Source: Acidobacteriota bacterium
GTDB lineage: Bacteria; Acidobacteriota; UBA6911; RPQK01; JAJDTT01
Length of the DNA: 64,000 bases
Assembly (NCBI GenBank): GCA_965263035.1
Contig: OZ253580.1
Coordinates: 320,001-384,000, forward strand
Reading direction: 5' to 3'
A model generated the notes under the pieces. That model did no database searches. It saw only the letters and a list, made by a program, of their open reading frames with translations, and was not told where the DNA came from. Each line of letters begins with the position of its first letter. Position 1 is the stretch's first letter. Positions 41,300 to 56,411 of the stretch are shown piece by piece. The position numbers and the translations under genes are program-made.

Positions 41300-42016
41300 T
41301 CATTCAGCGGTGGCTGGATGGACCGTCGTGGCCGGGGCCTTCCCCAGCAGGGAACCTTTTTCCAGATGATGGTTGATCCGGGCGAAAGCCGCGGCGCGGG
41401 GATCGTGTGTGACCATGACAATGGTTTTGCCGAAGTCCCGGTTCAGGGCCTCCAGCACGTTGAGGATGTCTCCAGCCGAGTCGGCGTCCAGGTCACCGGT
41501 CGGTTCGTCGGCCAGGATGAAGGTGGGATCGGTGACGATTGCCCGGGCGATCGCTACCCGCTGTTCCTCGCCTCCGCTGAGCTGGCGCGGATAGTGGCGT
41601 ATTCGGTCCGACAGGTTCACCAGTCTCAGGGCGGTCTCCACATGCTCTCGCCGTTCCTGTCGGGAGAGTGAGGTCAGCAGCAAGGGGAGTTCGACGTTCT
41701 CGAAGGCGGTCAGGACAGGGATCAGGTTGAAGTGCTGAAACACGAATCCCACGTGTTCATTGCGCCAGACAGCCAGTTCGTCTTCGCTGAGTGCAGTCAG
41801 ATCTTCTCCCAGGACCTGGAGTTGGCCGCCGGTCGGCCGGTCAATCCCGGCAATCAGGTTGAGCAGCGTGCTCTTTCCGGAGCCGGACGGTCCCATCAGG
41901 CTGATGAAGTCCTGATCGCGGATATCCAAGGTGATGTCCTTCAGAGCGACGACCTGGACCGTATCACGCTGGAACACGCGGCTCAGATTGCGCATTTCGA
42001 TCAATACCTTCGTCAT
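41300..42016 (-). CDS. ABC transporter ATP-binding protein (MacB/LolD type)
   Basis: [29 protein letters not shown]. Confidence 0.95.
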
Positions 42017-42267
42017 CCCGTGTCCTCAGCGGTAGTGTCTTCAGCCCCGGAATCGGTCCGCTTGCGAAAGAAAGTGACCTGAACATCCATCTCCGGCCGA
42101 AGGTACTCATCCGGTTCCAGAATCTGGACCTTCACCTGGATCGTGGCTCGCTGCCGGTTGGCCTCGGGTGCAATCTCTTCCAACTCACATTCGTATTCCC
42201 GCGCGGGATAGGCGATGGGAGACATCCTGCACCCGTTTTCGGGCGAGATGTTGTGAAAATCGGATTG
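42013..42267 (-). pseudogene. C-terminal part of efflux membrane-fusion (MacA/HlyD-like) gene split by the integrated element
   Basis: QSDFHNISP...IAPEANRQRATIQVKVQI..LRPEM; joins in frame with 52813-53726 across the att core. Confidence 0.88.
42257..42267. repeat. att core, left copy (AAATCGGATTG)
   Basis: 11-bp direct repeat identical to 52813-52823, located exactly at the break in the MFP reading frame. Confidence 0.9.
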
Positions 42268-42302
42268 AGGGTCGCGAAGTATAATAAGGGGGAGGACACA
42301 AC

Positions 42303-42479
42303 ATGACGACGAGGACAGCGCACGAGATTCTGATGGAGGTCCGACGGGACCCGAACGCGACGAGGGAAGATCGGGACTTCGCCTATCGAAAGTACCTGCG
42401 GGCACTCACGGTCCAGTTCAAGCCGGCCTGGAAGACGGCCATTCGGACGGTCGGGACCCGACGGGAAAGTGCCAGATGA
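42303..42479 (+). CDS. 58-aa hypothetical protein coupled to the integrase
   Basis: TATAAT (42280-42285), GGGAGG RBS, ATG 42303; its TGA overlaps the integrase ATG (ATGA); below the ORF-track cutoff. Confidence 0.6.
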   Translation: MTTRTAHEILMEVRRDPNATREDRDFAYRKYLRALTVQFKPAWKTAIRTVGTRRESAR

Positions 42480-43504
42480 GCGGACGGGCCAACGGAAACG
42501 TTCTCCGATTCCCCGGCAGGCGGGGCTGCCTGTTCTCGGACGAGCAGATGCGGGAGATGAGGGCCGCCGACCCGGCCAAGGTCCTCCAGACGCCAGCCGC
42601 GTTGCGGCGGTCCACGTTGGAGCGCAGCTTCCTGTCGGTCAGCAACTCCACCTCCAAGACCTACAAGGCCGCGTTGCGCGGGCTCGACAAATGGCTCGAC
42701 GACCGGGACCTCGACGACGGGCTCTTGGCCGACTACGCGTTGAGCCTCCACCGGGACGGGAAGGCCCCGAGCACGATCTCGACCGTGCTGGCGGCCGCGA
42801 GGTTCCGGGCCAAGGCCCTGAGGCAGCCGAACCCCGTCGGACCGGAGACGGAAGCCGTGAGGCGTCACGTCCGGCGGGAGGGCGCCGGACGCGGCAAGGG
42901 ACAGGCCAACCCCCTGACCCGGGACGAGGTGGAGCGGGTGATCTCGACGGCGGAGCGGGACGGCTCGGTCTGGGCGATCCGGGACGCGGCGCTGGTCGCC
43001 GCCGCGTTCTACTGCGGGCTCAGGTCCGCCGAGGTCACGGCCGTCAAGGTTCGGGACCTGGAGTTCCGGGACGACGGGACCGGGCTCCTCTCGATCCGGC
43101 AGTCCAAGAGCGACCAGTTCGGGCGCGGCAAGACGGTCCCCATCCCGAGGCCGGCAGCCCGTCGGATCTCGGCGTGGCTCCGCCTCGCCGGCATCGAAGC
43201 GGGACCGGTGTTCCCGGCAATCCAGACGAACGGGATCGGCGGGGCGCCGCCGAAGGTCCTGGACAGGGCGATGCACAAGGTCCACACGGGTAGGATCATC
43301 CGGGACCGGGCCAAGGCCGCCGGGTTTCCCGGGATCAGCTCCCACTCGATGCGAAGGTCCTTCGCCCAGCACCTGAGCCGGGAGGGATACGAGACCCACG
43401 TCATCGCGGAGGCCGGTCGGTGGTCCGACCTGAGCATGGTCCTGCGGTACACGCAGGGGACCCGGGCCGCCCGGTCCGCCGTCCTCTCGGCGTTCGACGA
43501 GTAG
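42476..43504 (+). CDS. tyrosine recombinase (Cre-like)
   Basis: RDAAL..GLRSAE (R), SKSDQ (K), SHSMRR (HxxR), AGRW (W as in Cre), LRY (Y). Confidence 0.92.
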   Translation: MSGRANGNVLRFPGRRGCLFSDEQMREMRAADPAKVLQTPAALRRSTLERSFLSVSNSTSKTYKAALRGLDKWLDDRDLDDGLLADYALSLHRDGKAPSTISTVLAAARFRAKALRQPNPVGPETEAVRRHVRREGAGRGKGQANPLTRDEVERVISTAERDGSVWAIRDAALVAAAFYCGLRSAEVTAVKVRDLEFRDDGTGLLSIRQSKSDQFGRGKTVPIPRPAARRISAWLRLAGIEAGPVFPAIQTNGIGGAPPKVLDRAMHKVHTGRIIRDRAKAAGFPGISSHSMRRSFAQHLSREGYETHVIAEAGRWSDLSMVLRYTQGTRAARSAVLSAFDE

Positions 43505-43649
43505 ACCCCCCGGCGGGCTGTCACCGCAACACGATATGATTGTTCGCGTGGCCGATTTTCTCCTTTTCTGGCCACAAGCTGCCTCTCGGTTGGGGAGGGA
43601 ATTTGATAGCCTCCCTCCCCGATCCGCCGGGAGGGAGTATAATAGGCTA

Positions 43650-44095
43650 TGCGGGTCGCCACCCTTCCCCCGGCGATCCGTTTCGTGGCCCCGGGAACTC
43701 GCCGATTTCATTGCACAATCTTGGTTCCCTCCCGGGGCCTTTCCCCCTTCTGTCGTGCCGTTGGGGTAAAGTGGTTTCGCAATGAAATTGGCGAGACGCT
43801 TACCGGTCGGCAACGGCCACTTGCACCCAGCGCCAATCGAGCACGCCGTTACTGGGGGGGAGATCCCGCAGCGGCAGCCCAAGATCCACGGACGGAAGCG
43901 GGCTAGGGGAGATCGTCAGGTCTCAGAGAAATCCGTCTAGTCGCGGCTGCTGACGCAGTGAAACGCGGCCCCACGACGGCCCCTGCATATCAGGGTCCGG
44001 GCAAGGATCTGCACCTCGCAAGTCTTGGAACCTTCGGGTTTCGGGCGGGGAGGGGTAGATCCTCGCCCACTCAAACCCCGCATATTCGGATTATG
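43650..44095 (+). ncRNA. putative large structured non-coding RNA or structured origin
   Basis: TATAAT at 43638; 17-bp stem 43698-43714/43779-43795 with a G-U pair, nested stems, GCAA and cUUCGg tetraloop hairpins; no credible long ORF. Confidence 0.5.
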
Positions 44096-44341
44096 GGGAT
44101 TAAGGGGGAATGGGGAACGAGAGAGAGAAAGAGTATGTCGCCCGTCGAATCACCGTCTGGGTCAAGACCACCGAGCTAAGGGGGAAGGAGGGAGGTCGAA
44201 CATGATGGACTTGTTCAGGCCGTCGTGCCGAATCCCGGGATTTACGGCCAAATCCCTCAGTGGTATCAGCCGAGGGCAAGGGGACCCCTATGAATTCTCC
44301 CCGGAAAGCAGGGGGCGGTCGTGTGGGGGGTCTTCGCACAC

Positions 44342-45805
44342 ATGAGCCGCCGCCGGGTCGAGTGGCCCCCCTCGATAGACCTCAGGCCGTTCCAACGCCG
44401 GTTCCTGTCCAATCTGCTAAGGCCAAGCACCAGAACCGCCGTCCTCTCGATGCCGAGGGGGAACGGGAAGTCGACCTTGCTCGCCCACGTTTGCCGGAGG
44501 GTCATGGACCCCGGAGACAAGCTGTTCGCCGACGGCGAGGACGTCTACCTCGTCGCCAACAGCCTCCAGCAGGCCGTCAGGACGACGTTCGGGATCTTCC
44601 GGTCGATGATGCCGGACGACCCGTTGGCGTACCGCTTCACCGAGAACACACAGGCCGCCCAATGCCTTCACGTCCGCTCGCGGACCAAGTTGACGGTCCT
44701 CCCCGCCAGCGGCAAATCGGCCTCCGGGATCGTACGGGCCCGGCTGGTCGTCTGCGACGAGCCGGCCGCCTGGCACGCCGCCGCCGGCCTGACGATGTTC
44801 GAGTCGATCCAGGGGGCAATCGGCAAGCCGGGGTCCCGGCTGAAGGTCGTCTACATCGGCACCCGAAGTATCGGCGGCGCCGCCCCCCCGGACCCCGAGA
44901 GCTGGTGGCCGACCTTGATCCGGGAGGGGTCCCGGGGGTTGACCTACGTCCAATTTCACCAGGGGGACCCCGACCGGTGGGACCAGTGGCAGAACATCCG
45001 CCGGGCGAATCCCCTCATGAGCCTCTTCGCCGAGTCGAGGGCCGTCCTGTTGGAGGAGCGGGACAAGGCCCGGACCGATCCCCGGCTCCGTGCGGCGTTC
45101 CTCTCGGATCGGCTGAACGTCCCCCGTGGGGACTCCTCCGCGGTGCTCTTGACGGTGGACGACTGGCGGCGGGTGCTCGACCGGCCCGTGGCGCCGAGCT
45201 CGGGCCGCCCCGTCTGCGGGGTGGATTTGGGCGGCGGACGGGCCTGGTCGAGTGCCGTGGCCGTCTGGCCGGGCGGCAGGACGGAGGCGGTCGCGCTGGC
45301 CCCCGGGATACCGGACCTCGAACGGCAGGAGAAACGGGACGGGGTGACCCCGGGCACCTATCGGCGGCTGGCCGACATCGGCGCCCTCGTCGTGGCCGAA
45401 GGCCTCAGGGTGCCGCCCGTCTCCCTGCTGGTGGCTCACGTGCGGGAATGGGGACCCGCCGCCATCGTCTGCGACCGGTTCAGGTACTCCGAGTTGCAGG
45501 ACTCGAACCCCGGATGCCCGATCGTCCCACGGATCAACAGGTGGTCGAACAGCACGGAGGACATAAGGTGCCTCCGTCGCGGGTGCCTCGACGGACCGCT
45601 CTCGGTGGCCGCTGGCTCCCGGGCCCTGGTCGAGGCGAGCCTGAGGGTCGCGACCGTCGTCAACGACGATTCGGGGAACTCCCGGCTGCGGAAGTCGAGC
45701 AACAACAAGGCCCGGGACGACGTGGCCCAGAGTTGGCTGCTGGCCGCCGGCGCCAACGCCCGCAGGAGGCCCGCCAGGACGCCCAGGATCTCCTTGGTGG
45801 GCTAA
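44342..45805 (+). CDS. phage terminase large subunit
   Basis: RPFQ (Q motif), MPRGNGKS Walker A, VVCDE Walker B, CGVDLG and RDD nuclease acidic residues. Confidence 0.88.
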   Translation: MSRRRVEWPPSIDLRPFQRRFLSNLLRPSTRTAVLSMPRGNGKSTLLAHVCRRVMDPGDKLFADGEDVYLVANSLQQAVRTTFGIFRSMMPDDPLAYRFTENTQAAQCLHVRSRTKLTVLPASGKSASGIVRARLVVCDEPAAWHAAAGLTMFESIQGAIGKPGSRLKVVYIGTRSIGGAAPPDPESWWPTLIREGSRGLTYVQFHQGDPDRWDQWQNIRRANPLMSLFAESRAVLLEERDKARTDPRLRAAFLSDRLNVPRGDSSAVLLTVDDWRRVLDRPVAPSSGRPVCGVDLGGGRAWSSAVAVWPGGRTEAVALAPGIPDLERQEKRDGVTPGTYRRLADIGALVVAEGLRVPPVSLLVAHVREWGPAAIVCDRFRYSELQDSNPGCPIVPRINRWSNSTEDIRCLRRGCLDGPLSVAAGSRALVEASLRVATVVNDDSGNSRLRKSSNNKARDDVAQSWLLAAGANARRRPARTPRISLVG

Positions 45806-45920
45806 CCCGGAGAATTCATGGCATAATGACTTGAGCTTGACAATTTGAACCGCATGTGAGAGCCCGCCGCCGCTGATTGGCTGCCACCTCTTTAGCCGTG
45901 ACCACCCGGGAGGGGGAGCC

Positions 45921-46187
45921 TTGACCCGCAAAGAAGCCAACGATCGAATCTACTCGTCGCGACGGTGGCGACGCCTCCGCCTGTCGGTCCTCGACCGTGC
46001 CGGCTGGCGCTGCCGTAAGTGCGGGCGGGCCGGACGCTTGGAGGTCCACCACAAGCACCCTGTTCGCGAGGGCGGCGAAGCCTGGTGCGAATCCAACCTC
46101 CAGCCCCTCTGCCGTACCTGCCACTTCCGCACCCATGTTCCCCTGCCGGCTGACGTGGCCGAGTGGAGGGCCTTCGCCGGTGCCTAA
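45921..46187 (+). CDS. HNH endonuclease (HK97 gp74-like terminase cofactor)
   Basis: RWRRLR..L.R...CRKC...EVHH...NLQPLCRTCH. Confidence 0.9.
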   Translation: MTRKEANDRIYSSRRWRRLRLSVLDRAGWRCRKCGRAGRLEVHHKHPVREGGEAWCESNLQPLCRTCHFRTHVPLPADVAEWRAFAGA

Positions 46188-46950
46188 CTTGAGTAGGATA
46201 TGGCGGCTCCACCCATTGACCGGCGGGCAGCCCAGCAGCCACTCGCTCTCGATTTGGGTCGAGACGCTGGGGTTGCGGGGGGAGCCGTACGGGGACCGTC
46301 TGCAAAGCGCGGACCCGCCCAGTTTCATCTCCCCCGCCAGCGGCTCCGAAGAGGCGCCGTCCCCCCGGACGAAACGGGTCTACACCCTGTCCCGCATGGG
46401 CGACCCCGTGCTCGTGGACGTGGGGGACCCGATCGGCTTCGAGACGCTTCGCATACGCCACCGGGACCTGTCCACCCACTCGATCTTCAGCGACGAGGAC
46501 GGCCGGGAGTGGCATGTCGAGAAGTTCGCCGACCCCGACGGGCGGCGGCGCTGGACGCAGGTCGAGCTTGTCGCCTACCGGATCGCCCCACCAGACGAGG
46601 TCCCCTCGTTCACGGCCCCGACGGGCTGGACGCTGGAGGAGGGCGGGGACCCGGTCCAATTGCTGACCGTGTCGGCCCGTGTGCGGACCCAGGACGCCTA
46701 CCACGAATTCGTCGGGCTCCGGTTCGGCCACGTGAACGCGTGGACTGCTACCGGCTTCGTCGTCGGGGAGTACCCCGTCGAACGGCCTGACGGCCTTGAG
46801 GGGACATTGATGTTCACCCAGGGGGCCGACCCCCAGGAAGGTCTCGGGGCGGGGGAGGACTGGCCCGGAGACGGAGCCTGCCTCATCGACGGAATACTAG
46901 CGTCCCGGGCCCTGGAGCTCGGGGCCGTCATTCGAATCAAGGGAACCTAA
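46180..46950 (+). CDS. putative head-closure/head-tail adaptor protein with C-terminal extension
   Basis: GGAGGG RBS with GTG 46180; LRIRHR...WHVEKFADPDGRRRWTQVEL resembles SPP1 gp16/HK97 gp7-type stoppers; about 120 extra C-terminal residues. Confidence 0.5.
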   Translation: MPNLSRIWRLHPLTGGQPSSHSLSIWVETLGLRGEPYGDRLQSADPPSFISPASGSEEAPSPRTKRVYTLSRMGDPVLVDVGDPIGFETLRIRHRDLSTHSIFSDEDGREWHVEKFADPDGRRRWTQVELVAYRIAPPDEVPSFTAPTGWTLEEGGDPVQLLTVSARVRTQDAYHEFVGLRFGHVNAWTATGFVVGEYPVERPDGLEGTLMFTQGADPQEGLGAGEDWPGDGACLIDGILASRALELGAVIRIKGT

Positions 46951-46963
46951 ATGGAGGAGTGAC

Positions 46964-48190
46964 ATGACCAAAGAAACACGCGAGGCGCTGCTGAAAGCCA
47001 GCGAGATTCGCACCAAGATCAACATGGAGCAGGCCAAGTCCGAGCCGAATTCCGAGACCCTGGAGACCCTGCGAAAGCAGTCCCTGGACGCGGAGGGGGA
47101 ACTCCGGGAGGCCCTGGCCAAGGACGAGGACGACGAGTCCATCGCCAAGACCCCGGACCGCGAGGAGCGGGACCGCCTGGAGCTGCGGTCCAAGTCCCGG
47201 TTCCATCGGTTCGTCAGGGCGGCGGTTCTCGGCAGGGAGGTTGACGGCGCGGAGGCCGAGTATGCCGACTCCCTGGGCTGCCCCGGACTGGTCCCGCTGG
47301 ACCTGTTCGAGACCCGGAGCCGGGAGCAGCGAGCGGTCACTCCGGGCCCGGCCGACGGCGACGTGAACAAGACCACGGCTCGGATCGTTCCGGCCCTCTT
47401 CGACCGGTCGGTTGCGCCGTGGCTGGGAATCGCCATGCCCACGGTCGGAACGGGCATCCAGTCCTTCCCGGTGCTGAGCACCAGCCTGACCGGCGGACCC
47501 AAGGCCGAGGACGCGGCAGCCGCGGAGACGGCGGGCGCGTTCACCGTCACCGACGCCGACCCTCGGCGGCTCACCGGCTCGTTCAAGATCCGCAAGGAGG
47601 ACATCGCCAAGATGTCGGGCCTCGAGGAGTCCCTCCGGTCCAACCTGTCCAGCGTCCTGAGCGACGAACTGGACAAGCAGGTCGTCAACGGCACCGCACC
47701 GCACCTGAACGGCATCCTTGAGCAGCTCACCAACCCCACGGCCCCGGCTGCTTCGGCGGAGAGCTTTGTCCGATACGTCACTGCCTTCGCCTCGCACATC
47801 GACGGGTTGCACGCTGTCCAGGAAACGGACGTGCGCGGTCTCGTCGGTCGGCAAACGCTCCGGCACATGGCTGCCACTTTCGGTGGCGCGGCAGTCCGTG
47901 GGGACCGCTCGGCAGCCGAGTACCTGCGCACGTCGTTCGGCGGGGTGCGGGCCACGAGGCGGATCGCGGACCCGGCGAGCAACGTCCAGCAGGTCATCAT
48001 CCGTCGGTCCAACCCGGCAGGCGACCGGGTGGCCGTGGCTCCCGTCTGGAGCGGCTTGGAGTTGATCCGCGACCCGTACACCGAGGCTGGCAAGGGCCAG
48101 ATCGTCGTGACCGGGATCGTCCTGGTCGGCGGGGTCGTCCTGCTTCGGTCCGGCGCATTCGTGCAGGACTCGTTCAGACTGGCCGCGTGA
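46964..48190 (+). CDS. major capsid protein (HK97 fold)
   Basis: GGAGG RBS; N-terminal charged coiled coil (delta domain); LVP, ELDKQVVNG..LNGIL, LIRDPYTEA.KGQI, C-terminal AF. Confidence 0.85.
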   Translation: MTKETREALLKASEIRTKINMEQAKSEPNSETLETLRKQSLDAEGELREALAKDEDDESIAKTPDREERDRLELRSKSRFHRFVRAAVLGREVDGAEAEYADSLGCPGLVPLDLFETRSREQRAVTPGPADGDVNKTTARIVPALFDRSVAPWLGIAMPTVGTGIQSFPVLSTSLTGGPKAEDAAAAETAGAFTVTDADPRRLTGSFKIRKEDIAKMSGLEESLRSNLSSVLSDELDKQVVNGTAPHLNGILEQLTNPTAPAASAESFVRYVTAFASHIDGLHAVQETDVRGLVGRQTLRHMAATFGGAAVRGDRSAAEYLRTSFGGVRATRRIADPASNVQQVIIRRSNPAGDRVAVAPVWSGLELIRDPYTEAGKGQIVVTGIVLVGGVVLLRSGAFVQDSFRLAA

Positions 48191-48738
48191 TGCCAATCAG
48201 CATCCTGAGGGGTCCCGCCGGCGCGGGCAAGTCGCAGTGGTTAAGGCGGAACGTTGGGGATGGCGAGATCATCCTCGACACCACGCCGATTTGGGCTGCG
48301 TTGACCAACGTCGAGCGGGACCCAGAGGGCCGTTACCGGGTTCGCCTCTTGGGAGAACCCGGATTGCGGGCGGCCCAATTCGCCAAGTGGAGCACCTTGG
48401 CCTTCGCAGCCAGGGAGAACCTGCCGGCTTGGTTCACCATCGCCAACTCCTCACCGGAGGCCATCACCCGCGTCCAGCAGGTCGTGGAGCGTGCCGGCGG
48501 GAGGATCGGGCGGATACGGACCGAGGACCCCGGCTTGGATACGGCCCTGGATCGGCTGGTCATCCCCAAGGCGTCCGTACCGGACGGCTGGGAGATCGTC
48601 GAGGACGGGGACGGCCGGAAGTACCTGCTCGACGAGTGCGACAACGCCCTCGCCAAGTGGTACGCCCGGAGCCCGGTTGCGGCGCGGATCGTCGCGAAGA
48701 AATACGGGCTGGCGTCCCGGCGCTCCGGGAGGAGGTAG
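48187..48738 (+). CDS. small P-loop NTPase/kinase-like protein
   Basis: ILRGPAGAGKS Walker A, IILD; overlaps the capsid stop. Confidence 0.65.
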   Translation: MMPISILRGPAGAGKSQWLRRNVGDGEIILDTTPIWAALTNVERDPEGRYRVRLLGEPGLRAAQFAKWSTLAFAARENLPAWFTIANSSPEAITRVQQVVERAGGRIGRIRTEDPGLDTALDRLVIPKASVPDGWEIVEDGDGRKYLLDECDNALAKWYARSPVAARIVAKKYGLASRRSGRR

Positions 48739-48740
48739 AC

Positions 48741-49193
48741 ATGGTGGAGAAGATTCATCGAAACGTCGAGATGGAACTGAGGGAAGGCCGCAACGGGCCC
48801 ATGCTCCACGGGACGATCGTCCAAGAGGGACGGGCCGCCACCGGTGGCCGGGCCGAGTTGTTCGCCCCCGGGAGCGTCACCTGGCCGGAGAACGGCATCG
48901 GGATCAAGGTCGGCCACGACGGGACGGAGGAGAGCCGGACCTACCCCGTGAGGTCCCCGAACGGAGAGATCAGGATCGCGGCCAAGGCCACCGAGCGGAT
49001 GGTCCGGGCCGTCCGGGAGGGCAAGACGGGGATGAGCGTCGAGTTCATCGCCTTGAGTGAGAACCGGACCAAGGGCGGGGTCAGGGAGCTCACCCGTGCC
49101 CTGGTGGACGCGGCGGCCATGACGGCGACCCCCGAGTACCAGCAGGGGCGGGCCGAGCTCCGGGCCAAGCGGGGGTACCAGATATGGCTGTGA
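48741..49193 (+). CDS. HK97-type prohead protease
   Basis: GGAGG RBS; ELFAPGSV, VGHD (His), GMSVEF (Ser), TPEY. Confidence 0.82.
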   Translation: MVEKIHRNVEMELREGRNGPMLHGTIVQEGRAATGGRAELFAPGSVTWPENGIGIKVGHDGTEESRTYPVRSPNGEIRIAAKATERMVRAVREGKTGMSVEFIALSENRTKGGVRELTRALVDAAAMTATPEYQQGRAELRAKRGYQIWL

Positions 49194-49498
49194 ATGCCTC
49201 CCAGTTGGCCCTGGCCCTACGCATCGTCGCCGACGAGGGGGATAGCCTGCCATCGGGCCAGACGGCCGTCCTGACGCGAATCCTGGCCGTTTCCGTCGCC
49301 TTGGTCGAGAAGCACGTCGGCGAGGGCGACCTCGACACGGACGTGGAGGACGAGGCCGTGATTCGCCTGTCCGCGTACTTGTTCGACACCGACCCGGTAC
49401 GGTCCAGGGGGAACGCGATGGTCAACAGCGGGTGCGCCCATCTGATCGACCAGTTCCGAACCCGGCGATCCGCCGTGGTCGAGGAGGACGACGAATGA
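49184..49498 (+). CDS. head-tail connector (HK97 gp6-like)
   Basis: 104-aa helical protein, LALALRI..ALVEKH..DEAVIRLSAYLFD..LIDQFR. Confidence 0.7.
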   Translation: MAVNASQLALALRIVADEGDSLPSGQTAVLTRILAVSVALVEKHVGEGDLDTDVEDEAVIRLSAYLFDTDPVRSRGNAMVNSGCAHLIDQFRTRRSAVVEEDDE

Positions 49499-50493
49499 GG
49501 TTCCAAGGCCGGGAGGTCCGGCTACCGTGGGAGCAGCGCTCCACAAGCTACTCGGAACTGATCGTGGCCGGTCTCCAGGCCCGGGCCGGGGGGGATGCCA
49601 ACGCGGACCTGCTGGCCACCGTCGAGGCGGCCTGCGGGATCTGGGAGAGGTCCCTGGCTGCTGGACGGTCATCGGTCCTCAGTCCGGCGCAACTGGCGAT
49701 GATCGGGCGCTCCCTGCTGCTCACCGGCGAGTCGGTCTGGTGGAAGTCCATGGGGTCCGGCCTGATGCCGGTCTCCCAGTGGGACCTGTCGGGCAAGTCG
49801 GCGGCCCAGAGCCGGTGGACCTACAAGCTCACCCTCTCGGTGCCGGATGGGACGATCCTCAAGGACGCCCATTCCAAACGGGTCCTCCACGTGCGGATCG
49901 GCAGCACCCCGGACCGGCCATGGGAGGGCACGAGCCCCCTGGCCCGCTCCGCGGCCACCAGGGACGCGCTGAGGGCGATCGAGGCGTCACTCCGCAAGAG
50001 CCACCAGGGACCGATCGGGGACATTTTGCCCGTGCCGGACCCCACCGACGAGAACCTGAATTCGGCGCTGCTCGGACTCAACGGCAAGACGCTGCTGGTG
50101 GAGCACTCGGAACTCGGCCTGCCGGGAGAGGGTCAGTCCGGCCGGACGACCTGGAACCCGAGACGGATCGGGCCGGCACCCTCGGAGGGAACGGTAGCGG
50201 CCCGGGAACCACTGCGACGTGACCTGCTGGAGGCTGCCGGCCTTCCCCCGAGCATGGTGGCACCGTCCACGGCCAACAGCGCCAGGGAGGGCCTGCGCCA
50301 GTTCCTCTGGACCACCGTCTCCCCGGTCGTCGGGTTGATCTCGGCGGAGTTGGAGCGGGTCGGGCTCGACCCCGAGATCGACATGAGCGGCCTGAACGCC
50401 AGCGACCTGGCGGGCCGCGCCCGGGCACTGGGCCAGATGGTCAAGGCCGGGGTTCCGCTCGACGAGGCCCGGAGGCTCACCGGCATGGAATGA
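49495..50493 (+). CDS. phage portal protein (short, 332 aa)
   Basis: GAGGAGG RBS; ATVEAAC, LLLTGE, VLHVR..WEGTSPL, AAGLPP, LDEARRL pattern of HK97-type portals. Confidence 0.75.
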   Translation: MRFQGREVRLPWEQRSTSYSELIVAGLQARAGGDANADLLATVEAACGIWERSLAAGRSSVLSPAQLAMIGRSLLLTGESVWWKSMGSGLMPVSQWDLSGKSAAQSRWTYKLTLSVPDGTILKDAHSKRVLHVRIGSTPDRPWEGTSPLARSAATRDALRAIEASLRKSHQGPIGDILPVPDPTDENLNSALLGLNGKTLLVEHSELGLPGEGQSGRTTWNPRRIGPAPSEGTVAAREPLRRDLLEAAGLPPSMVAPSTANSAREGLRQFLWTTVSPVVGLISAELERVGLDPEIDMSGLNASDLAGRARALGQMVKAGVPLDEARRLTGME

Positions 50494-50623
50494 GGAATGA
50501 GGCTTGCGGCCACTCGCCGCCGGAGGCATGGGAAAGGTGCTCCGTCAACAAGAACCTACCCACAGCATTCTCCTTTTTCGGTTGGGGAGGGGGGCGACCC
50601 CCTCCCCGTTTTCCCCCGACCTG

Positions 50624-50995
50624 ATGGCGAAGAACCCCGAGACCGCGGAGCGGATGCGGAGGCTGTGGGCCGACCCGGAGTTCCGGGCCAAGCGGTCCGC
50701 CGCCATCAAGCGGGCCCACTCGAAACCCGACCTCCGGGCCAAGCGCCGGAGGATCACCACGAAACTCTGGCGGGACCCGGCCTACCGGGAAAGGGCCAGC
50801 GCCGCTTTGAGGGAGGCCCAGAACCGGCCGGAGGTCCGGCAGAGGAAGTCGGAGTCCATCCGGCGGGCCCTGGCCGCTCCCGAGCAGCGGGAGCGCCTGG
50901 GGAGGCCGCGCAGGCGGAAGGTCAGCGACTTCGCGGCCGCGTGGTTCGGGCTGGACGAGCCCTATGTCCCGGAGGGGGGTAGTGTCCTAATTTGA
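50624..50995 (+). CDS. basic helical-repeat (NUMOD3-like) DNA-binding protein
   Basis: Repeats LWADPEFRAKRS / AHSKPDLRAKRR / LWRDPAYRERAS / AQNRPEVRQRKS / ALAAPEQRERL; no nuclease domain; start uncertain. Confidence 0.55.
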   Translation: MAKNPETAERMRRLWADPEFRAKRSAAIKRAHSKPDLRAKRRRITTKLWRDPAYRERASAALREAQNRPEVRQRKSESIRRALAAPEQRERLGRPRRRKVSDFAAAWFGLDEPYVPEGGSVLI

Positions 50996-51176
50996 ATCTG
51001 GCGCAGAAACTCTCCGGGCTCGGCCCTGGAGGAAGGGACCAACGGACACTCAGAGCAGCGGCGGATCAGGATCGCTTCCCGACAGCGTGATTCGGCTGGA
51101 GTCCGGTTTGACCATTACAATCCCGGCGCATAGAATCAGCGGAAATTGACCGTTCTACCATGGGAGGAGGGTAGTT

Positions 51177-51560
51177 TTGAAGAAACAAAGAAGAACGATC
51201 AACGGTTCCGGTTCAAAATTGAAGCCACCCGAAAAGATACCTATTCAGTGGGTTCACGCAAAGGAATCTCGTTTGGTACCATATCACGGAGTGTTCGGGG
51301 GCCTCATACCCAGGGGGGATCTTCACGTCTCGATTTATGCTGAACAGATGCCCGACCCCGAGCCTGGACAGAATTTTCTCCAGCAGATTGAGGGTCAGAC
51401 AGGTCGGTACAAGGAAGAAAACAAACCCCGGAAGGCATCTCCGATCATCCGTGAGGTCCAGGTTCGATTTGTTATTCCACGCAGTCTGGTGCGCGATGTT
51501 GCGGACTGGTTCGCGCAGAAAGCGAACGAGATTGATCAATTCCCTTCTACCCCAGTGTAA
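51177..51560 (+). CDS. cargo gene A, hypothetical (DUF3467-like, possible chaperone)
   Basis: GGGAGGAGG RBS with TTG start; HGVFGGLIPRG..Y.E..P and IIREVQVRF...VADWF pattern. Confidence 0.7.
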   Translation: MKKQRRTINGSGSKLKPPEKIPIQWVHAKESRLVPYHGVFGGLIPRGDLHVSIYAEQMPDPEPGQNFLQQIEGQTGRYKEENKPRKASPIIREVQVRFVIPRSLVRDVADWFAQKANEIDQFPSTPV

Positions 51561-51585
51561 GCAGCCGGACAGAAAAGGAGGTCCG

Positions 51586-52170
51586 ATGACCAAAGAATAC
51601 AAGATGCCCAAATCTACGGCGGATGCTTCCTCCCTTCCGACAGTATTCTTGCTAGTGGGGTCGTTCGTGGCCGTGTGTCCGCTCTACGGAAATCATATAT
51701 CACATAGGGTGGACGGGTCGGGTCCGGAATCACTGACCGCCCCGGAAGTGATTATGAAGTCAGCGACCGATTACCCCAAGGAGCCGAGAGACCCGATTGA
51801 GGGCCCACCTAACGAAGGGGCTCTTCGGATGGTCGAGGAGATTTCAGAGGACTGCGCCATGGATGATTGGGACGGTGAAGGCGCAGACCGGGTCCCCTCG
51901 GAATCGGTCGTGATTGCTCGTAATCTCGTGGCGAATCTGCCCCCCCATGCTCTTACGACCGGACTTGACATCGATGCTACCCCGTTCGGCTCTATCGACT
52001 TCGAGTGGGTGCTGGAGACGGAAGCCATGTTGAACATCCTGATTCTCCCTTCAGGAGAGCTTGGTTTTGCTTATTCCGTTCGTGAGGACGTGGGTGAAGG
52101 CAAAGTGAGATGGGAAGGCTCGATTCCGACTCCTATTGCGGCGGCACTCAACAGAGTATTTGAGCAGTGA
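51586..52170 (+). CDS. cargo gene B, hypothetical (probable antitoxin)
   Basis: AAGGAGG RBS; probably disordered N-terminal ~75 aa, then an acidic domain with DDWDGEGA and PFGSIDFEW motifs. Confidence 0.7.
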   Translation: MTKEYKMPKSTADASSLPTVFLLVGSFVAVCPLYGNHISHRVDGSGPESLTAPEVIMKSATDYPKEPRDPIEGPPNEGALRMVEEISEDCAMDDWDGEGADRVPSESVVIARNLVANLPPHALTTGLDIDATPFGSIDFEWVLETEAMLNILILPSGELGFAYSVREDVGEGKVRWEGSIPTPIAAALNRVFEQ

Positions 52171-52565
52171 GTGGACGGGATTCAGCCCTTGCTCGATTTG
52201 CAGTATTCAGAAAGCAGATAACGCCGAGCCGAACGTTGCCGAAGCTATTCCGGCCAGATAAGCATAGGAAGGTTTCTGTCTTTCGGATTCAGGACAAGAC
52301 TTGCAAAGAGGTCGTATCGGTAGGGGTCGGAGTCGCAAGATCACATCGTGACTCTAGGAACTTATACGGTTGGGCGGAATTGACCTACCGACAGATTCAG
52401 AACATTGGACTATCCGTTGACGATGATGAGATTCCGAAGGACCACTCGCACATCGTGGGATGGCCTGACGATGAGGAGAGGTCTCTACGGTATCGACAGA
52501 GTCTTGCCAAACAGGCTGCGCGAATATTGCTTCCAAAACCTATTCCTGTACGGAACAGCATATAA
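52167..52565 (+). CDS. cargo gene C, putative ADP-ribosyltransferase-fold toxin
   Basis: GTGA overlap with B; basic 132 aa; LARF (R), F.P..VSVFR (S), G.A.L and HSHIVGW pattern of small ART-like toxins. Confidence 0.55.
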   Translation: MSGRDSALARFAVFRKQITPSRTLPKLFRPDKHRKVSVFRIQDKTCKEVVSVGVGVARSHRDSRNLYGWAELTYRQIQNIGLSVDDDEIPKDHSHIVGWPDDEERSLRYRQSLAKQAARILLPKPIPVRNSI

Positions 52566-52812
52566 TTGGTGCGAGTCAGCCCTTTCCCTTTGCGGCCATC
52601 GGCAAGAGTTGGTCCACTGACCCCGCCAGACCCGCCTCCAGAATACCATCGGGTGGGCGATGAGAGAAGGGAGAACCCGGCACAGTTGAAACCCATTCCC
52701 TAGTAAGATCTAGTCGGGGTCGGCTATTAACACCCGGCCCCTCTCCCACCCCCTCGAAATTCCCGTTTTACAAGGTCGGACGGATGTTGTATAATTCCCT
52801 TGGTTGTCGTAT

Positions 52813-52823
52813 AAATCGGATTG
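52813..52823. repeat. att core, right copy (AAATCGGATTG)
   Basis: Identical to 42257-42267. Confidence 0.9.
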
Positions 52824-53726
52824 GCTGATATCCAGCTCCGCCTGCAGATCCCGCAGATCCGCCAACGCCACCAGGACGGCTCCCCCCATAAAGTAGGCCG
52901 AGACCATTTCACCGACTTCAACGACTCGTTCCAGAATGGTGCCGCTGACGGGTGCCCGGATCTCCGTCTCCTGCAGTTGGGTTTGCCAGTACCGGATGGC
53001 CGCCTGGCTTCGCTCGAGCTCGGCACGGGCAGCCTGGATCCGCTCGGTTCGGGGGCCGATCTCCAGGAGCCGGTGGTTTTTCTCGGCGACGGCAACGGCG
53101 GCCTTGGCCATGTCGCGGCGAGACCGGGCATTGTCGACCCGTTGTTGAGCGATGACACCACTTTCGATGAGTTGGCTGAAGCGACGATACTCGAGATCGG
53201 CGATGTCGAATTCGGCACGGCTTCTTTCCAGCTCCGCCTGTGCGATCTCAATCTCTTCCGGCCGTGACCCGGTTTCCAGTTCGGTGAGGCGGGCCCGTGC
53301 CGAGTGAGAATCGGCTTCTGCCTGCTGGAGTTGGGCTCGGAATTCGGCGTCCTCCAGCCGGACCAGCAATTGGCCCTTTTCGACTCGATCCGATTTATCG
53401 ACTCCGACCCAGGCGACCTTCCCCATAATTCGGGAACTGACTTCGATCCGGTGATGAGGGACGATGTAGCCCGAGACGATCAGCAACGGCCCTTCCCGAT
53501 CCGACGCCCCATCGGCCGCAGCACCGGCAGGGGCAACCGTGGCCGGGTCCGCCCGGACCTCGGCCCGCGCCGCATCGGGCGTCTGCCGGGAAAGGTTGTG
53601 GAAAAGCAGCGCAGTCAGGACGGCGCCCGCCAGGAAGGCCGCCAGTCCGATCAGCCACAAGTTGGGGGACGGCCTGGAACGCCGGCGGTTGCGGTCGATG
53701 CGCAACGCTTTCAAATCTTTTTCCAT
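52813..53726 (-). pseudogene. N-terminal part of efflux membrane-fusion (MacA/HlyD-like) gene
   Basis: MEKDLKALRIDR, TM anchor, SGYIVP, VSSRIMGKV, IRAPVSGTILER, ending ..ELDISQSD at the att core. Confidence 0.9.
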
Positions 53727-54892
53727 CAGTCTCGCATCACATCGATCAAGCGCACCCGGGCGGCTCGTGCCGCCGGGAGCAAGCCACCGGCAATCCCCAC
53801 CAGGCTGACGAATAGAATCGCTTTGAAGAGAATTTCGGGAGTGATTCGAAAATGGAACAAGACTTCGCTGAAACTGGCGAAATTCGTGGTCCCCGTGGTA
53901 ATGCCGTGGACCGGCAGGGCCATGACACAACCCACGACTCCTCCCAGCAACGCCAGAAAAACGGACTCCGCCAGGAAGGATGCCAGGATGCTCCGTCTGC
54001 GAAATCCCAGTGCCCGCAAGGTCCCAATCTCTTTGAACCGGGCCATGACGGTACCGTACATCATGTTCATGGCGGCAAAGCAGGAACCGATTCCCATGAC
54101 CACCGCGATGAAGATGCCCAACGCCTTGAGTCCCACGGAGGATATCGTCTGTCCCTCGTAATATTCGGTTTGGGGAATGGCTTGCAGTTCGATGTTCCGA
54201 TCCTCCTCGATCCGTTTCGCCAGAGCCGCTCGAGCCTGTGCATTATTGGCGCGCACCAGGAAAGAGGTGTAGATCGGTCGATTCCAGGCTAACGCAATCT
54301 CGTCGTAGTCCCCCCAGATTTCGGAATCGTAGGCCGTGCCACCAGCATCGAAAATACCCACCACGGACCATTCAGTCTGCGCGATGGCCAAGGTATCGCC
54401 CAGCTTCATGTTCTTGAAGCGACGCGACAGTGAACGGCTCACGATCAGTTCCCGCACGCCTTTTGCATGGCGCCGTCCCTCGACGATCCGGACTTCCGGC
54501 CGCATTTCGAAGCCCCGGTTGCCGGTGCCGCGCACGACAATGTTCGAAGTCTCGTTTGCTCCCGCAATGCGCTCATGATTGATGACGACGATGAGCTCGC
54601 CGGAAGCCCACGGCTCATCGTCTTCGTCGCGAGCCACCTCCGGCAGAAAGCGGACCTTCGGAAAGAGGTTCCGGTCCAGATAGCTGTTGGTCTCGTTCTG
54701 GGAACCTTGCCGAATGACCACCAGGTCATTGGGGTTTCCGGTGTTGACGAAGGTCGAGTCGAGGCCTTCGATGAGGGCCATCATCGCGACCAGAATGGCC
54801 ACTGTGAACCCAATTCCCAATGCGGTCATCAGGGTGCCGACTCGCCTTACCCAGAGACTCCGCAGGTTGTATCGAATGGGGATCTTCATCAC
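53726..54892 (-). CDS. ABC transporter permease (MacB/FtsX family)
   Basis: YNLRSL..RTLMTALGI, periplasmic domain, EIGTLRALGF, LLPAARAAR. Confidence 0.92.
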   Translation of the reverse strand: MMKIPIRYNLRSLWVRRVGTLMTALGIGFTVAILVAMMALIEGLDSTFVNTGNPNDLVVIRQGSQNETNSYLDRNLFPKVRFLPEVARDEDDEPWASGELIVVINHERIAGANETSNIVVRGTGNRGFEMRPEVRIVEGRRHAKGVRELIVSRSLSRRFKNMKLGDTLAIAQTEWSVVGIFDAGGTAYDSEIWGDYDEIALAWNRPIYTSFLVRANNAQARAALAKRIEEDRNIELQAIPQTEYYEGQTISSVGLKALGIFIAVVMGIGSCFAAMNMMYGTVMARFKEIGTLRALGFRRRSILASFLAESVFLALLGGVVGCVMALPVHGITTGTTNFASFSEVLFHFRITPEILFKAILFVSLVGIAGGLLPAARAARVRLIDVMRD

Positions 54893-54966: not shown

Positions 54967-56118
54967 CTAGCCCACACTTTGCAATGCTGCGAGAGTCGGA
55001 CGCCGGGCCGCCTGCCAAGCGGGCAGGCCGGCGGCGAGTAGTCCGATCACGGCTCCAATCAAAATGCAGACCGCGATCGTGGAGAATTGGACTTCGAAAT
55101 TCTGGATGAACCCGTTGCTGATGGCCTGCATCGGCACGTACTGGAAAATCAGGCGAGCGCTCAGCGCGCCGAAGCCTGCTCCGCTCATTGCCAAGAAAAG
55201 CGACTCACTCAACAACAAACCCAAAACCTGCGCCTTCCGGAAACCCAGGGTCTTGAGAATCCCAATCTCCCGTACGCGCTCGCGGATGGACATGGCCATG
55301 GTGTTCGCCGCTACCAGACTGACGGCAAAGATCACGGCCAGACAGATGCTGCTGATCAGAAACTGGACGTTCCCCAGCATGGAGACAAACCCCATGATGA
55401 AGGCTTTCTCAGTTTCAGTCTTGGTGGGAGCCATCGAGTTCTTGAAGAGGCCGTCCACGTCCTCGGCGATGGCCGACAACATCTCGGCTGAAGAGGCCCG
55501 GATCGTGAAGGTCCCGGTAACGCCTCTGTCGTCCAACGTTTCATTGAAGTAATCCCAATGGAAATAGATGCTGCCGCCCTCATCGCCCCCGCCCTGGTAG
55601 ATGGCGCGGATCTTCAACTCCATTTCGGTCGGGAAGAGATTGCTGCCGGTATGAATCGTCTGCCCCAGCTGCCAGCCGAACCGGTCGGCCACGACTTTGC
55701 CCACCAGCGCACCGGAACGATCCTGCAGAAAGGCTTCTTTCTGCTCGTCGGGAACGATGATATCGGGATAGACCCGAAAGAAATCGTCAGTATCGGAGGC
55801 AAACTGCGCCAAGCTGACCTCAGTGCCGTTATGGTTAAAGAGGCCGCCAAACCACATCGATCCGATCACGGCTTCCACACCGTCGACGGCGGCGATTTTT
55901 TCCCGATAGGAGGTGGGCAGCGTGTTGAACAGGGAGATCTTGTGCCGGACGATGAGCCGCAAGGCCGAGTCCGGGGTCTCGGGTGGACTGCTCAACTCGT
56001 CGAGCACCGTCATCAGAGTGGCCACCAGGAAAATCGATGCTCCGATGCTACTCGTCGTCAACAGAGTCCTGAGCTTGTTTCGGAACAGATTCCTGGCGAG
56101 CAGTCTGAAGAACTTCAT
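54967..56118 (-). CDS. ABC transporter permease (MacB/FtsX family)
   Basis: RNLFRNKLRTLLT, RERVREIGILKTLGF, LPAWQAAR. Confidence 0.92.
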   Translation of the reverse strand: MKFFRLLARNLFRNKLRTLLTTSSIGASIFLVATLMTVLDELSSPPETPDSALRLIVRHKISLFNTLPTSYREKIAAVDGVEAVIGSMWFGGLFNHNGTEVSLAQFASDTDDFFRVYPDIIVPDEQKEAFLQDRSGALVGKVVADRFGWQLGQTIHTGSNLFPTEMELKIRAIYQGGGDEGGSIYFHWDYFNETLDDRGVTGTFTIRASSAEMLSAIAEDVDGLFKNSMAPTKTETEKAFIMGFVSMLGNVQFLISSICLAVIFAVSLVAANTMAMSIRERVREIGILKTLGFRKAQVLGLLLSESLFLAMSGAGFGALSARLIFQYVPMQAISNGFIQNFEVQFSTIAVCILIGAVIGLLAAGLPAWQAARRPTLAALQSVG

Positions 56119-56411
56119 GTTCGTACTCGGCACCCCGGTCCAGGAGCCTGCGCCGCAGAAATTGAGCTACTGCGAAAGCGGTAGAATCGGTCCATATTTC
56201 CTCGATTTCTCGGCGAATAGAACAACTATGCACCTCCAAATCGAGAAAATCTGGCCTCGATTCCCCACTTTCTCGCTACGATCATTTCTACCGCACAGAC
56301 TCCTAGCCCGAAGTTCTCAACCGGCCGCTGAGTATGTGCCGAAAATGATTTTATCTTGAGTCGACGACCGGCGTTCAATTGGAGTCTCGCCAGCCGTGAC
56401 CGAGTCGGGGG

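Follow-up and report, generated by a model that had tools for sequence, protein, structure and literature searches.

The 64,000-nucleotide (nt) stretch of contig OZ253580.1 analysed here (positions 320,001 to 384,000; hereafter the window, to which all coordinates refer unless a genome position is stated) contains a segment of about 10.5 kb in which an integrase gene is followed by phage head and packaging genes. This segment is probably an intact integrative mobile element from a previously undescribed family of helper-dependent, "head-only" phage satellites. It is best filed as a new lineage or variant of capsid-forming tail-less satellites, not as a categorically new kind of element, and the best reading of its gene content is that it works like those phage-inducible chromosomal islands that form capsids (cf-PICIs) or like the satellite MulchRoom, and is probably not homologous to either.

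The window has just two exact copies of the 11-mer AAATCGGATTG, one at 42257-42267 and the other at 52813-52823, with a start-to-start spacing of 10,556 bp, and two or more copies were found in none of 100 dinucleotide-preserving shuffles. The perfect direct repeats that an earlier note on this DNA, made from the sequence alone, had placed around the segment are therefore well founded. They lie where a HlyD/MacA-type membrane-fusion gene is split:

42013..42267, minus strand, 3' fragment of the HlyD/MacA-type membrane-fusion gene (PF16576 HlyD_D23, profile positions 152-212 of 214)
42257..42267, no strand, attL core, 11-bp direct repeat (two exact copies; flank overlap in 8/8 congeners)
52813..52823, no strand, attR core, 11-bp direct repeat (same repeat and congener evidence)
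52813..53930, minus strand, 5' part of the HlyD/MacA-type membrane-fusion gene (PF16576, profile positions 21-157, and PF13437)

The 5' part of the gene stops at the right repeat and its last ~80 codons continue from the left one; the element truncates the gene and supplies no replacement 3' end. An intact ortholog is found in all eight other species of the genus (79-93% identity), and in the same eight congeners the 300-nt flanks taken up- and downstream of the segment abut with an overlap of exactly 11 nt. The empty attB that the earlier note had proposed to look for is thus present in every congener, and because the flanks join in this way the segment is a precise, site-specific insertion at the 11-bp core. 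In Logan contigs of two public runs (X6 and X7), too, position 42256 is joined to 52813, which leaves out 10,556 bp, with 11 letters shared between the two sides; the depth is 94 and 40, and element-like sequence in these runs has a depth of ~1-12; in a third run (X5) both element junctions are present, as in the window. As the shorter side of the X6 and X7 joints has just 22 letters, they are used as supporting evidence only. A tRNA-targeting island was ruled out, there being no tRNA gene in the window. The split gene belongs to a minus-strand operon with two MacB-type FtsX permeases (54967-56133 and 53726-54892) and an ABC ATPase (41300-42016). The insertion separates the ATPase gene from the permease and adaptor genes upstream, and its expression is probably altered as a result.

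Between the repeats, the set of head and packaging genes is complete, with an HK97-type major capsid protein (MCP), an S78 protease, a portal, a gp6-type adaptor, a large terminase (TerL) and a packaging-type HNH endonuclease. These genes, the integrase and the open reading frames (ORFs) and motif that accompany them are:

42476..43504, plus strand, Cre-like tyrosine recombinase (integrase; PF00589, 3.3e-18; phrog_1, 8.3e-31)
44280..44289, plus strand, GGGGACCCCT, candidate cos/terminase recognition element (30 nt before the TerL GTG; sole copy in the window)
44321..45805, plus strand, TerL (phrog_9, 3.7e-35, residues 18-478; GTG start)
45921..46187, plus strand, HNH endonuclease of the packaging-associated type (PF01844, 5.9e-9; phrog_589, 6.7e-20)
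46387..46950, plus strand, orphan protein X (start maybe as far upstream as 46183)
46964..48190, plus strand, HK97-type MCP (PF05065, 1.9e-9)
48187..48738, plus strand, small P-loop kinase-like protein, predicted polynucleotide-kinase fold (AF2 and Foldseek)
48735..49193, plus strand, prohead serine protease, S78 family (profile-profile match)
49184..49498, plus strand, gp6/gp15-type head-to-tail adaptor of 104 aa, or "connector" (fold comparison)
49495..50493, plus strand, portal protein (PF04860, 6.8e-11; phrog_12, 1.2e-8)

All element genes lie on the plus strand. According to the ORF coordinates, the junctions from the MCP through the portal overlap by 4-10 nt or are 13 nt apart, the portal start having been placed by aligning the N-termini of its paralogs. 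The closest solved relative of the integrase by sequence is Cre (E 1.1e-15, residues 84-336), which makes the label Cre-like a fair one. Paralogs of TerL match PF20441 and PF03354, and the Cys/His/Asn motif columns of the HNH endonuclease (metal and catalytic) are all invariant across 11 family members. The long charged N-terminal extension of the MCP is presumably delta/scaffold-like. Regarding the protease, there is no direct Pfam match for the protein alone; six of the family proteases scanned match PF04586, and a profile of the protease and five paralogs aligns with a profile of seven PF04586-positive paralogs at an hhalign probability of 98.6% (E 8.8e-16). Its His61 and Ser101 are invariant in its own six-sequence alignment of window-type proteases.

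The adaptor and the P-loop protein were recognised by fold. A homolog search with the adaptor matched only itself, and the profiles of both proteins gave nothing significant against PDB sequences. The AF2 model of the adaptor, built on a 13-sequence family alignment (pLDDT 83.7), has five top structural matches that are all head-to-tail adaptors, with VIA-align Z scores of 11.1 for the phage 7-7-1 neck 1 protein, 9.6 for HK97 gp6, 9.5 for the phiXacJX1 connector and 7.3 for both SPP1 gp15 and YqbG; the next row has a Z of 4.7. For the P-loop protein (AF2 pLDDT 80.8), Foldseek retrieved the kinase domain of T4 Pnk (E 4e-5) and also C. thermocellum Pnkp, and the Atlas lead was to AAA_33/zeta clusters at 0.89; the modelled fold is polynucleotide-kinase-like. 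The profile and fold matches thus agree with the earlier note on the Cre-like recombinase, TerL, HNH, HK97 MCP, P-loop protein, protease, connector and portal, as the ORF coordinates do on the single orientation and tight coupling of the genes. Its "stopper-like" label for 46387-46950 found no such backing. Orphan X has no Pfam, PHROG, NCBIfam or PADLOC match, its best Atlas score of 0.79 provides no lead, only two homologs were found (86-92% identity, 232 and 256 aa), and it is not in the paralogous elements described below.

Among the 14 ORFs of the element, scans with Pfam, PHROG and NCBIfam gave no tail, holin, lysin, Rep/primase or classical small terminase (TerS) match, and no ORF matched an AlpA/MerR/Stl-type regulator. 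For this copy, the earlier statement that there is no replication gene and no TerS holds, in that no profile assigns Rep/primase, AlpA or canonical TerS to it. The sole "TerS" label comes from phrog_4581 ("terminase small subunit"), which the P-loop protein matches over positions 124-166 (E 7.8e-4). The HNH endonuclease of the element matches positions 45-108 of the same profile (3.6e-11), family HNH proteins span positions 45-116, and three of the four P-loop paralogs tested match positions 123-256, down to 3.7e-12. From these alignments phrog_4581 looks like a fusion of an HNH and a kinase-like part, and its TerS label is doubtful; what it joins in one polypeptide is encoded in the element by separate HNH and P-loop genes, with the MCP gene between them. 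The classical TerS fold consists of a helix-turn-helix (HTH) and an oligomerisation part, and the P-loop protein was rejected as a classical TerS on account of its predicted polynucleotide-kinase-like fold. By Rosetta-stone logic, the fusion would tie the kinase-like protein to HNH-dependent packaging and makes it a candidate replacement for TerS. DNA recognition, the role of TerS, could fall to the HNH and kinase-like pair or to the NUMOD-like protein encoded after the portal.

The motif GGGGACCCCT just before TerL is the best candidate for a packaging (cos) site. In 19 family loci (727 kb, both strands) there are nine exact copies, and eight of them, from eight of the loci, lie within -300 to +30 of TerL and on its strand, with 0.009 expected, a figure to be read with the kinship of the loci in mind. 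Three linear viral contigs of the family (L022, L023 and L027) begin ~50-75 nt ahead of TerL and have 3' ends 18-19 nt past the motif, the intervening letters being different. The motif is also found at or upstream of TerL in L028, L036, L039 and L040, and with one mismatch in the paralogous element E7. Its candidacy follows from a position that is kept across ~30% protein identity and from the constant distance to the contig ends, and cleavage is predicted near 44,305-44,310.

The earlier note had asked for syntenic elements in related genomes, and the compact tail-less module does recur, in the same genome, in congeners and in two other families. The 6.2-Mb genome to which the window belongs (97% complete) has six further loci with all or most genes of the order TerL-HNH-MCP-(P-loop)-protease-(adaptor)-portal, together with an integrase gene that is not always in the same place; paralogs are 25-53% identical over long alignments, a value that rises to 57% at most where short TerL fragments align. 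Locus E1 (genome 17.4-22.7 kb), one of the six, is a broken copy: its MCP is interrupted by a stop codon, its TerL is truncated and an insertion sequence (IS) lies nearby. Two others are precise insertions that are absent in 8/8 congeners. E7 (9.9 kb) lies inside a sodium:solute symporter gene at a TTGAAG-type core, and the symporter halves (L014:2462-2770 and 12662-14290, genome ~5,348.5 and 5,358.7 kb) read through as one protein in the order of the congeners. E4 (9.3 kb) lies at a gene end, and its flanks abut in seven of the eight congeners, the remaining one (G007) having 179 extra nt. Within the genus, the module was found in four of the eight other genomes, and among relatives in none of 32 genomes of other genera. 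In 401 genomes of the phylum, the own genome included, searched at E up to 1e-30, it was found in the own genome, one congener and two genomes of other families; the fetched loci of relatives keep the same gene order. The MCP has 293 database homologs; the contigs of the best 119 (self excluded) include 19 of 6-9 kb, 32 of 9-12.1 kb, five of 12.1-15.2 kb and none of 15.2-18.3 kb, and MCP clusters at 90% identity are found on Mb-sized contigs and also on 9-12-kb contigs. The recurrence of the minimal content, the intact frames, the unit of ~10 kb and the precise insertions, which are recent, jointly speak for a family that is mobile and under selection. The earlier note had argued against a randomly decayed prophage, and the recurring module, the two intact att sites and the precise insertion bear this out.

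Relatives differ in their accessory genes. Two loci in another family of the phylum (L039 and L040) have an AlpA gene after the portal and an HTH_17 gene upstream, L036 has an HTH_23 protein and L037 a NikA-like ribbon-helix-helix (RHH) protein, and L034 shows a weak Neck1/tail-completion match (phrog_5, 1.2e-4). The congener copy L035, whose TerL is the closest to that of the element (53%), has a PF03090 Replicase gene next to TerL. No remnants of these small accessory genes were detected in the 816-bp gap between integrase and TerL of the element. The family is therefore not defined by the absence of regulator, replication and TerS genes: what the earlier note presented as a trait of the class is true of this copy and does not extend to the family as a whole, given the Replicase in L035 and the AlpA in L039 and L040. 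Further away, seven IMG/VR contigs (L022-L028, 7.5-11.7 kb) have the same order of TerL, HNH, MCP, protease, adaptor and portal genes, with an MCP ~30% identical. In one of them, L028, the two ends overlap by 99 bp, as would be expected of a circular assembly, and L027 and L028 have replication-initiator-like winged-HTH (wHTH) ORFs that match phrog_1032 and phrog_270 (E down to 6.7e-13). These seven may be very small, more autonomous viruses. Between adaptor and portal they have a fibre-like ORF of 700-1200 aa with a hydrophobic N-terminus and many short repeats ending in DHVHP, and one of the seven was binned with a Chloroflexi metagenome-assembled genome.

Other searches and neighbourhoods also touch on the family. 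Two metagenome contig scans, one of them with an MCP alignment, yielded no confirmed relative, and the single contig matched in a genome-contig scan was identical to the viral contig L027. Three weak portal-like tblastn matches (genome 167 kb, 2,070 kb and 2,899 kb) sit among housekeeping genes and were rejected as prophages. ORFs of 470 aa, equal in length and codon-position GC, occur at genome 22,789-24,201, 1,791,088-1,792,500 and 5,145,448-5,146,860, inside or beside the paralogous loci E1, E3 and E6; they are presumably copies of a single IS. Of the three, the E3 copy (L010) was scanned and proved to be a DDE_Tnp_1_4 transposase. At genome 5,643-5,662 kb (L015), five integrase paralogs and a portal fragment look like a hotspot or graveyard of related elements. 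In L039 (G389:C1:1,453,000-1,473,000), two capsid-family genes flank TerL-HNH, and a SIR2_2-domain gene, possible defence cargo, comes right after AlpA.

Comparison with known systems places the element near capsid-forming satellites. cf-PICIs are described as having genes of their own for capsid, protease, portal, connectors, HNH, TerS and TerL, so that tails are all they take from a phage; the prototype EcCIEDL933 has 15.4 kb, and the authors inferred three independent origins (bioRxiv 10.1101/2022.09.08.507074). The element shares with them the integrated island, integrase, own MCP, protease, portal, head-tail adaptor, TerL and HNH and the lack of tail and holin genes; small unit-length DNA and HNH-dependent cos-type packaging are also implied in both. 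In contrast to cf-PICIs, it has no AlpA-type regulator, primase/replicase or TerS, its order is int followed by TerL-HNH-(X)-MCP-kinase-protease-adaptor-portal, it is smaller (10.6 kb; paralogs 9.3-9.9 kb), and it inserts into protein-coding genes. The cf-PICI model of SatelliteFinder has 11 core components, of which at least nine are needed for the weakest type (PMC10085698). The element has ~7 of the 11, tallied from the model definition, and falls outside cf-PICI as SatelliteFinder defines it.

Also close to the element are two Streptomyces satellites, MulchRoom (14.8 kb, with a tyrosine integrase) and MiniFlayer (17.4 kb), which have encapsidation genes and lack key replication genes (PMC10690885). 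The likeness to the element extends to TerL, portal, MCP, head-to-tail adaptor, HNH and the absence of key replication genes, and with MulchRoom also to the tyrosine integrase, and is a functional resemblance only; unlike the element, they have, besides TerS and a scaffolding protein, terminal repeats that are long and direct, and their helpers are jumbo phages. Because these two had already been described, the element is less unprecedented than the earlier note claimed. Of its proposal of a distinct class, the own gene order stands; the novelty of a capsid-encoding satellite that lacks key replication genes does not. In 50,697 phage records, a collection not checked for MulchRoom or MiniFlayer, the MCP had no match at E up to 1e-5, and the TerL matches, 21-25% identical, were to other phages. 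HK97-like cos siphophages whose terminase depends on HNH, reportedly the subject of work by Kala et al. in 2014, resemble the element in the HK97-fold MCP with an N-terminal extension, the S78 protease, the gp6-type adaptor and the TerL and HNH logic; their TerS, stopper, tail, lysis and replication genes and ~40-kb genome set them apart, none of these having been found in the element. The 10.6 kb likewise gave no tail, lysis or replication module of a temperate tailed phage, and neither did those paralogous loci that were scanned. Among the papers listed in literature searches on Planctomycetes prophages and on phage satellites, none describing such elements was found; supplementary tables might list some. 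To our knowledge, it is chiefly in Proteobacteria, Firmicutes and a few Actinobacteria that phage satellites have been described, and the phages of the host phylum are almost unknown.

The two ends of the element, and the gap after the integrase, add to the picture of how it might work:

42303..42479, plus strand, basic 58-aa ORF (sORF58; 4-nt overlap with the int start)
43505..44320, no strand, ORF-poor region of 816 bp with hairpins (inverted repeats, e.g. 17-nt arms 43698-43714 / 43779-43795)
52767..52795, plus strand, strong promoter-like site reading outward across attR (TTTACA-17-TATAAT, 11/12; consensus match only)

The 58-aa ORF has no family match in Pfam, PHROG, NCBIfam or PADLOC; translationally coupled to int, it is possibly an excision or regulatory factor. 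The gap takes the place that a primase-replicase gene has in cf-PICIs. Its RNA fold has a z of -2.8 and was equalled in stability by none of 20 shuffles, and a search of the element against Rfam (E up to 1) was negative. The structured non-coding region of the earlier note is therefore confirmed only as modestly above shuffles, and the clearest feature of the gap is the conserved motif by TerL.

On induction, the recombinase would excise the element, perhaps with the coupled 58-aa protein, and in the circle the right-end promoter would face the 58-aa ORF and int. TerL and HNH would make their cut at a cos site a short way upstream of terL, with GGGGACCCCT as its mark; the P-loop protein may assist the cutting, as its fusion to HNH in some phages suggests. 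Unit-length DNA of ~10.5 kb would be packed into small self-made capsids, and the adaptor would close the portal and offer a surface on which neck and tail parts can dock. A helper phage would have to supply tails, lysis and possibly replication, the arrangement seen in cf-PICIs and MulchRoom-type satellites. That the element is excised, packaged and dependent on a helper is in each case inferred. The Pfam tail profiles used (tape measure, sheath, baseplate J and Sipho_tail; 0/4) and Terminase_6C had no match anywhere in the genome, and its only PF05065 match is a family copy. The helper, if any, is exogenous or too divergent for the profiles used.

More tentatively, and with appreciably less confidence than in the satellite reading itself, the family could represent one more independent emergence of capsid-forming satellites, in the host phylum the first, with elements of ~7-10.6 kb that would be intragenic and lack TerS and a replication protein, and in which TerL, HNH and the kinase-like partner would cut at the GGGGACCCCT site in a TerS-independent initiation of packaging. 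What is most original in the element is a gene set that is minimal, targets that are intragenic, the diversity of its many copies in one genome, the motif beside terL and the pairing of HNH with a kinase in place of a recognisable TerS. With TerL, HNH, MCP, protease, adaptor and portal, to which the integrase is added, the family comes close to the smallest gene set that can build a head and fill it. Such a family, concrete, present in multiple copies and evidently active in a phylum with almost unknown phages, points to helper phages still to be found, and its copies, which land inside transporter genes, would also shape the phenotype of the host.

Several observations weigh against a helper-dependent satellite. 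Four to six orphan ORFs (X, sORF58 and the three cargo ORFs listed below) may conceal a new kind of replication initiator, lysis protein or neck part. A single head-completion protein, the gp6-type adaptor, was recognised, by fold, compared with an adaptor and a connector in cf-PICIs. No helper phage was identified by the tail profiles in the genome or among the 50,697 phage records. Among the joints listed in assembled contigs of public runs there is no attP (circle) joint or other sign of excision or packaging of this copy, and the empty-site joints have the short 22-letter side mentioned above. The P value of the motif is overstated, since the loci are related and not independent. Finally, some relatives have replication-type genes (L035, L027 and L028) and the fibre-like giant ORF, so that this copy could be a reduced derivative of something more autonomous.

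This last point leads to an unlikely alternative, in which the element is a reduced and possibly defective derivative of a lineage of ~10-12-kb autonomous viruses that lost the fibre-like protein and the replication initiator and is rarely or never mobilised. The seven viral contigs share the head-gene order, four of the seven (L022, L023, L027 and L028) carry GGGGACCCCT beside TerL, all encode the 700-1200-aa ORF with its repeated short His-containing motifs, and L027 and L028 add the initiator-like wHTH proteins. However, their MCP identity is only ~30%, they too have no recognisable tail tube, tape measure or lysis genes, and at least 12 loci from the phylum of the host that lack the giant ORF keep intact, coupled frames; the three copies in one genome that are recent precise insertions of 9.3-10.6 kb speak for the reduced form being mobile still. 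It is very improbable that the element is what remains of an ordinary tailed prophage in decay, with tail, lysis and replication deleted. The gene content is a subset of a siphovirus head module and E1 is clearly broken, but at least 12 loci in at least seven genomes keep the minimal set and order with open frames, at an identity of 25-57%, the insertion is precise and lies between two intact att sites, unit length clusters at 9-12 kb, and no phylum locus examined has an adjacent tail module.

It is also decidedly doubtful that the element produces tail-less DNA-filled capsids independently of a helper, as a selfish particle of the kind of a gene transfer agent (GTA) or a vesicle that is released and taken up by host routes. 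The absence of the four tail profiles from the genome would fit such a producer, as would the high copy number in one genome, an MCP with no match in 50,697 phage genomes at E up to 1e-5 and a TerL at most 25% identical, although Pfam tail profiles may miss divergent phages of the host phylum. The retained gp6-type adaptor has an established role in phage biology, that of joining the head to the neck or tail. GTAs are vertically inherited and package host DNA; the element, unlike them, has an integrase, att repeats, an empty site in 8/8 congeners, multiple diverged genome copies, polymorphic insertions and a cos-like motif. Very improbable, like the decaying remnant, is an additional role as a regulatory intervening element ("active lysogeny"), which by excising reversibly would turn the efflux-adaptor gene, and with it the ABC ATPase downstream, on and off. 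A coding gene is split with its 3' end not restored, the ATPase gene is separated from its operon and the second copy E7 also splits a gene, that of the symporter; yet the third copy E4 lies at or after a gene end, the contigs of the source run contain no excision evidence, and all congeners do without the insert, which therefore is not a conserved developmental switch.

The satellite reading leaves the right part of the element to be described, where a basic repeat protein and the cargo follow the portal:

50504..50995, plus strand, basic stand-alone array of NUMOD3-like DNA-binding repeats (repeat homology)
51108..51136, plus strand, promoter-like site before the cargo (TTGACC-17-TAGAAT, 10/12; consensus match only)
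51177-51560, 51586-52170 and 52167-52565, plus strand, three lower-GC cargo ORFs (GC 0.54-0.55)

The basic protein has 1811 matches at E up to 1e-3. Among the best 30 of these, which were scanned, seven contain GIY-YIG, others contain HNH, TnsA-like, Vsr/DUF559 or endonuclease I domains, and two contain NUMOD3 or NUMOD-like repeats. From this company it can be read as a NUMOD3-like DNA-binding module, which specifies further the basic repeat protein of the earlier note. The cargo ORFs have no Pfam, PHROG, NCBIfam or PADLOC match. The GC content is ~0.58-0.60 in the flanks and 0.68-0.71 inside the element (0.68-0.70 in the head genes), and falls to 0.54-0.55 over the last 1.5 kb. Paralogs of the cargo (22-41% identity) are located at genome 2,907.4-2,908.8 kb (L016:8420-9764), among IS transposases and a HIRAN-domain gene. 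As these paralogs lie outside any head module, the trio appears to move as its own unit.

Two minor observations concern the genomes of the genus. The flank of a congener locus encodes PSCyt2/PSD1 domains, which are typical of planctomycetes, and a sequence of ~60 nt with 91-98% identity, REP/MITE-like, occurs in dozens of places in every genome of the genus (e.g. L014:14361-14420, genome ~5,360.4 kb).

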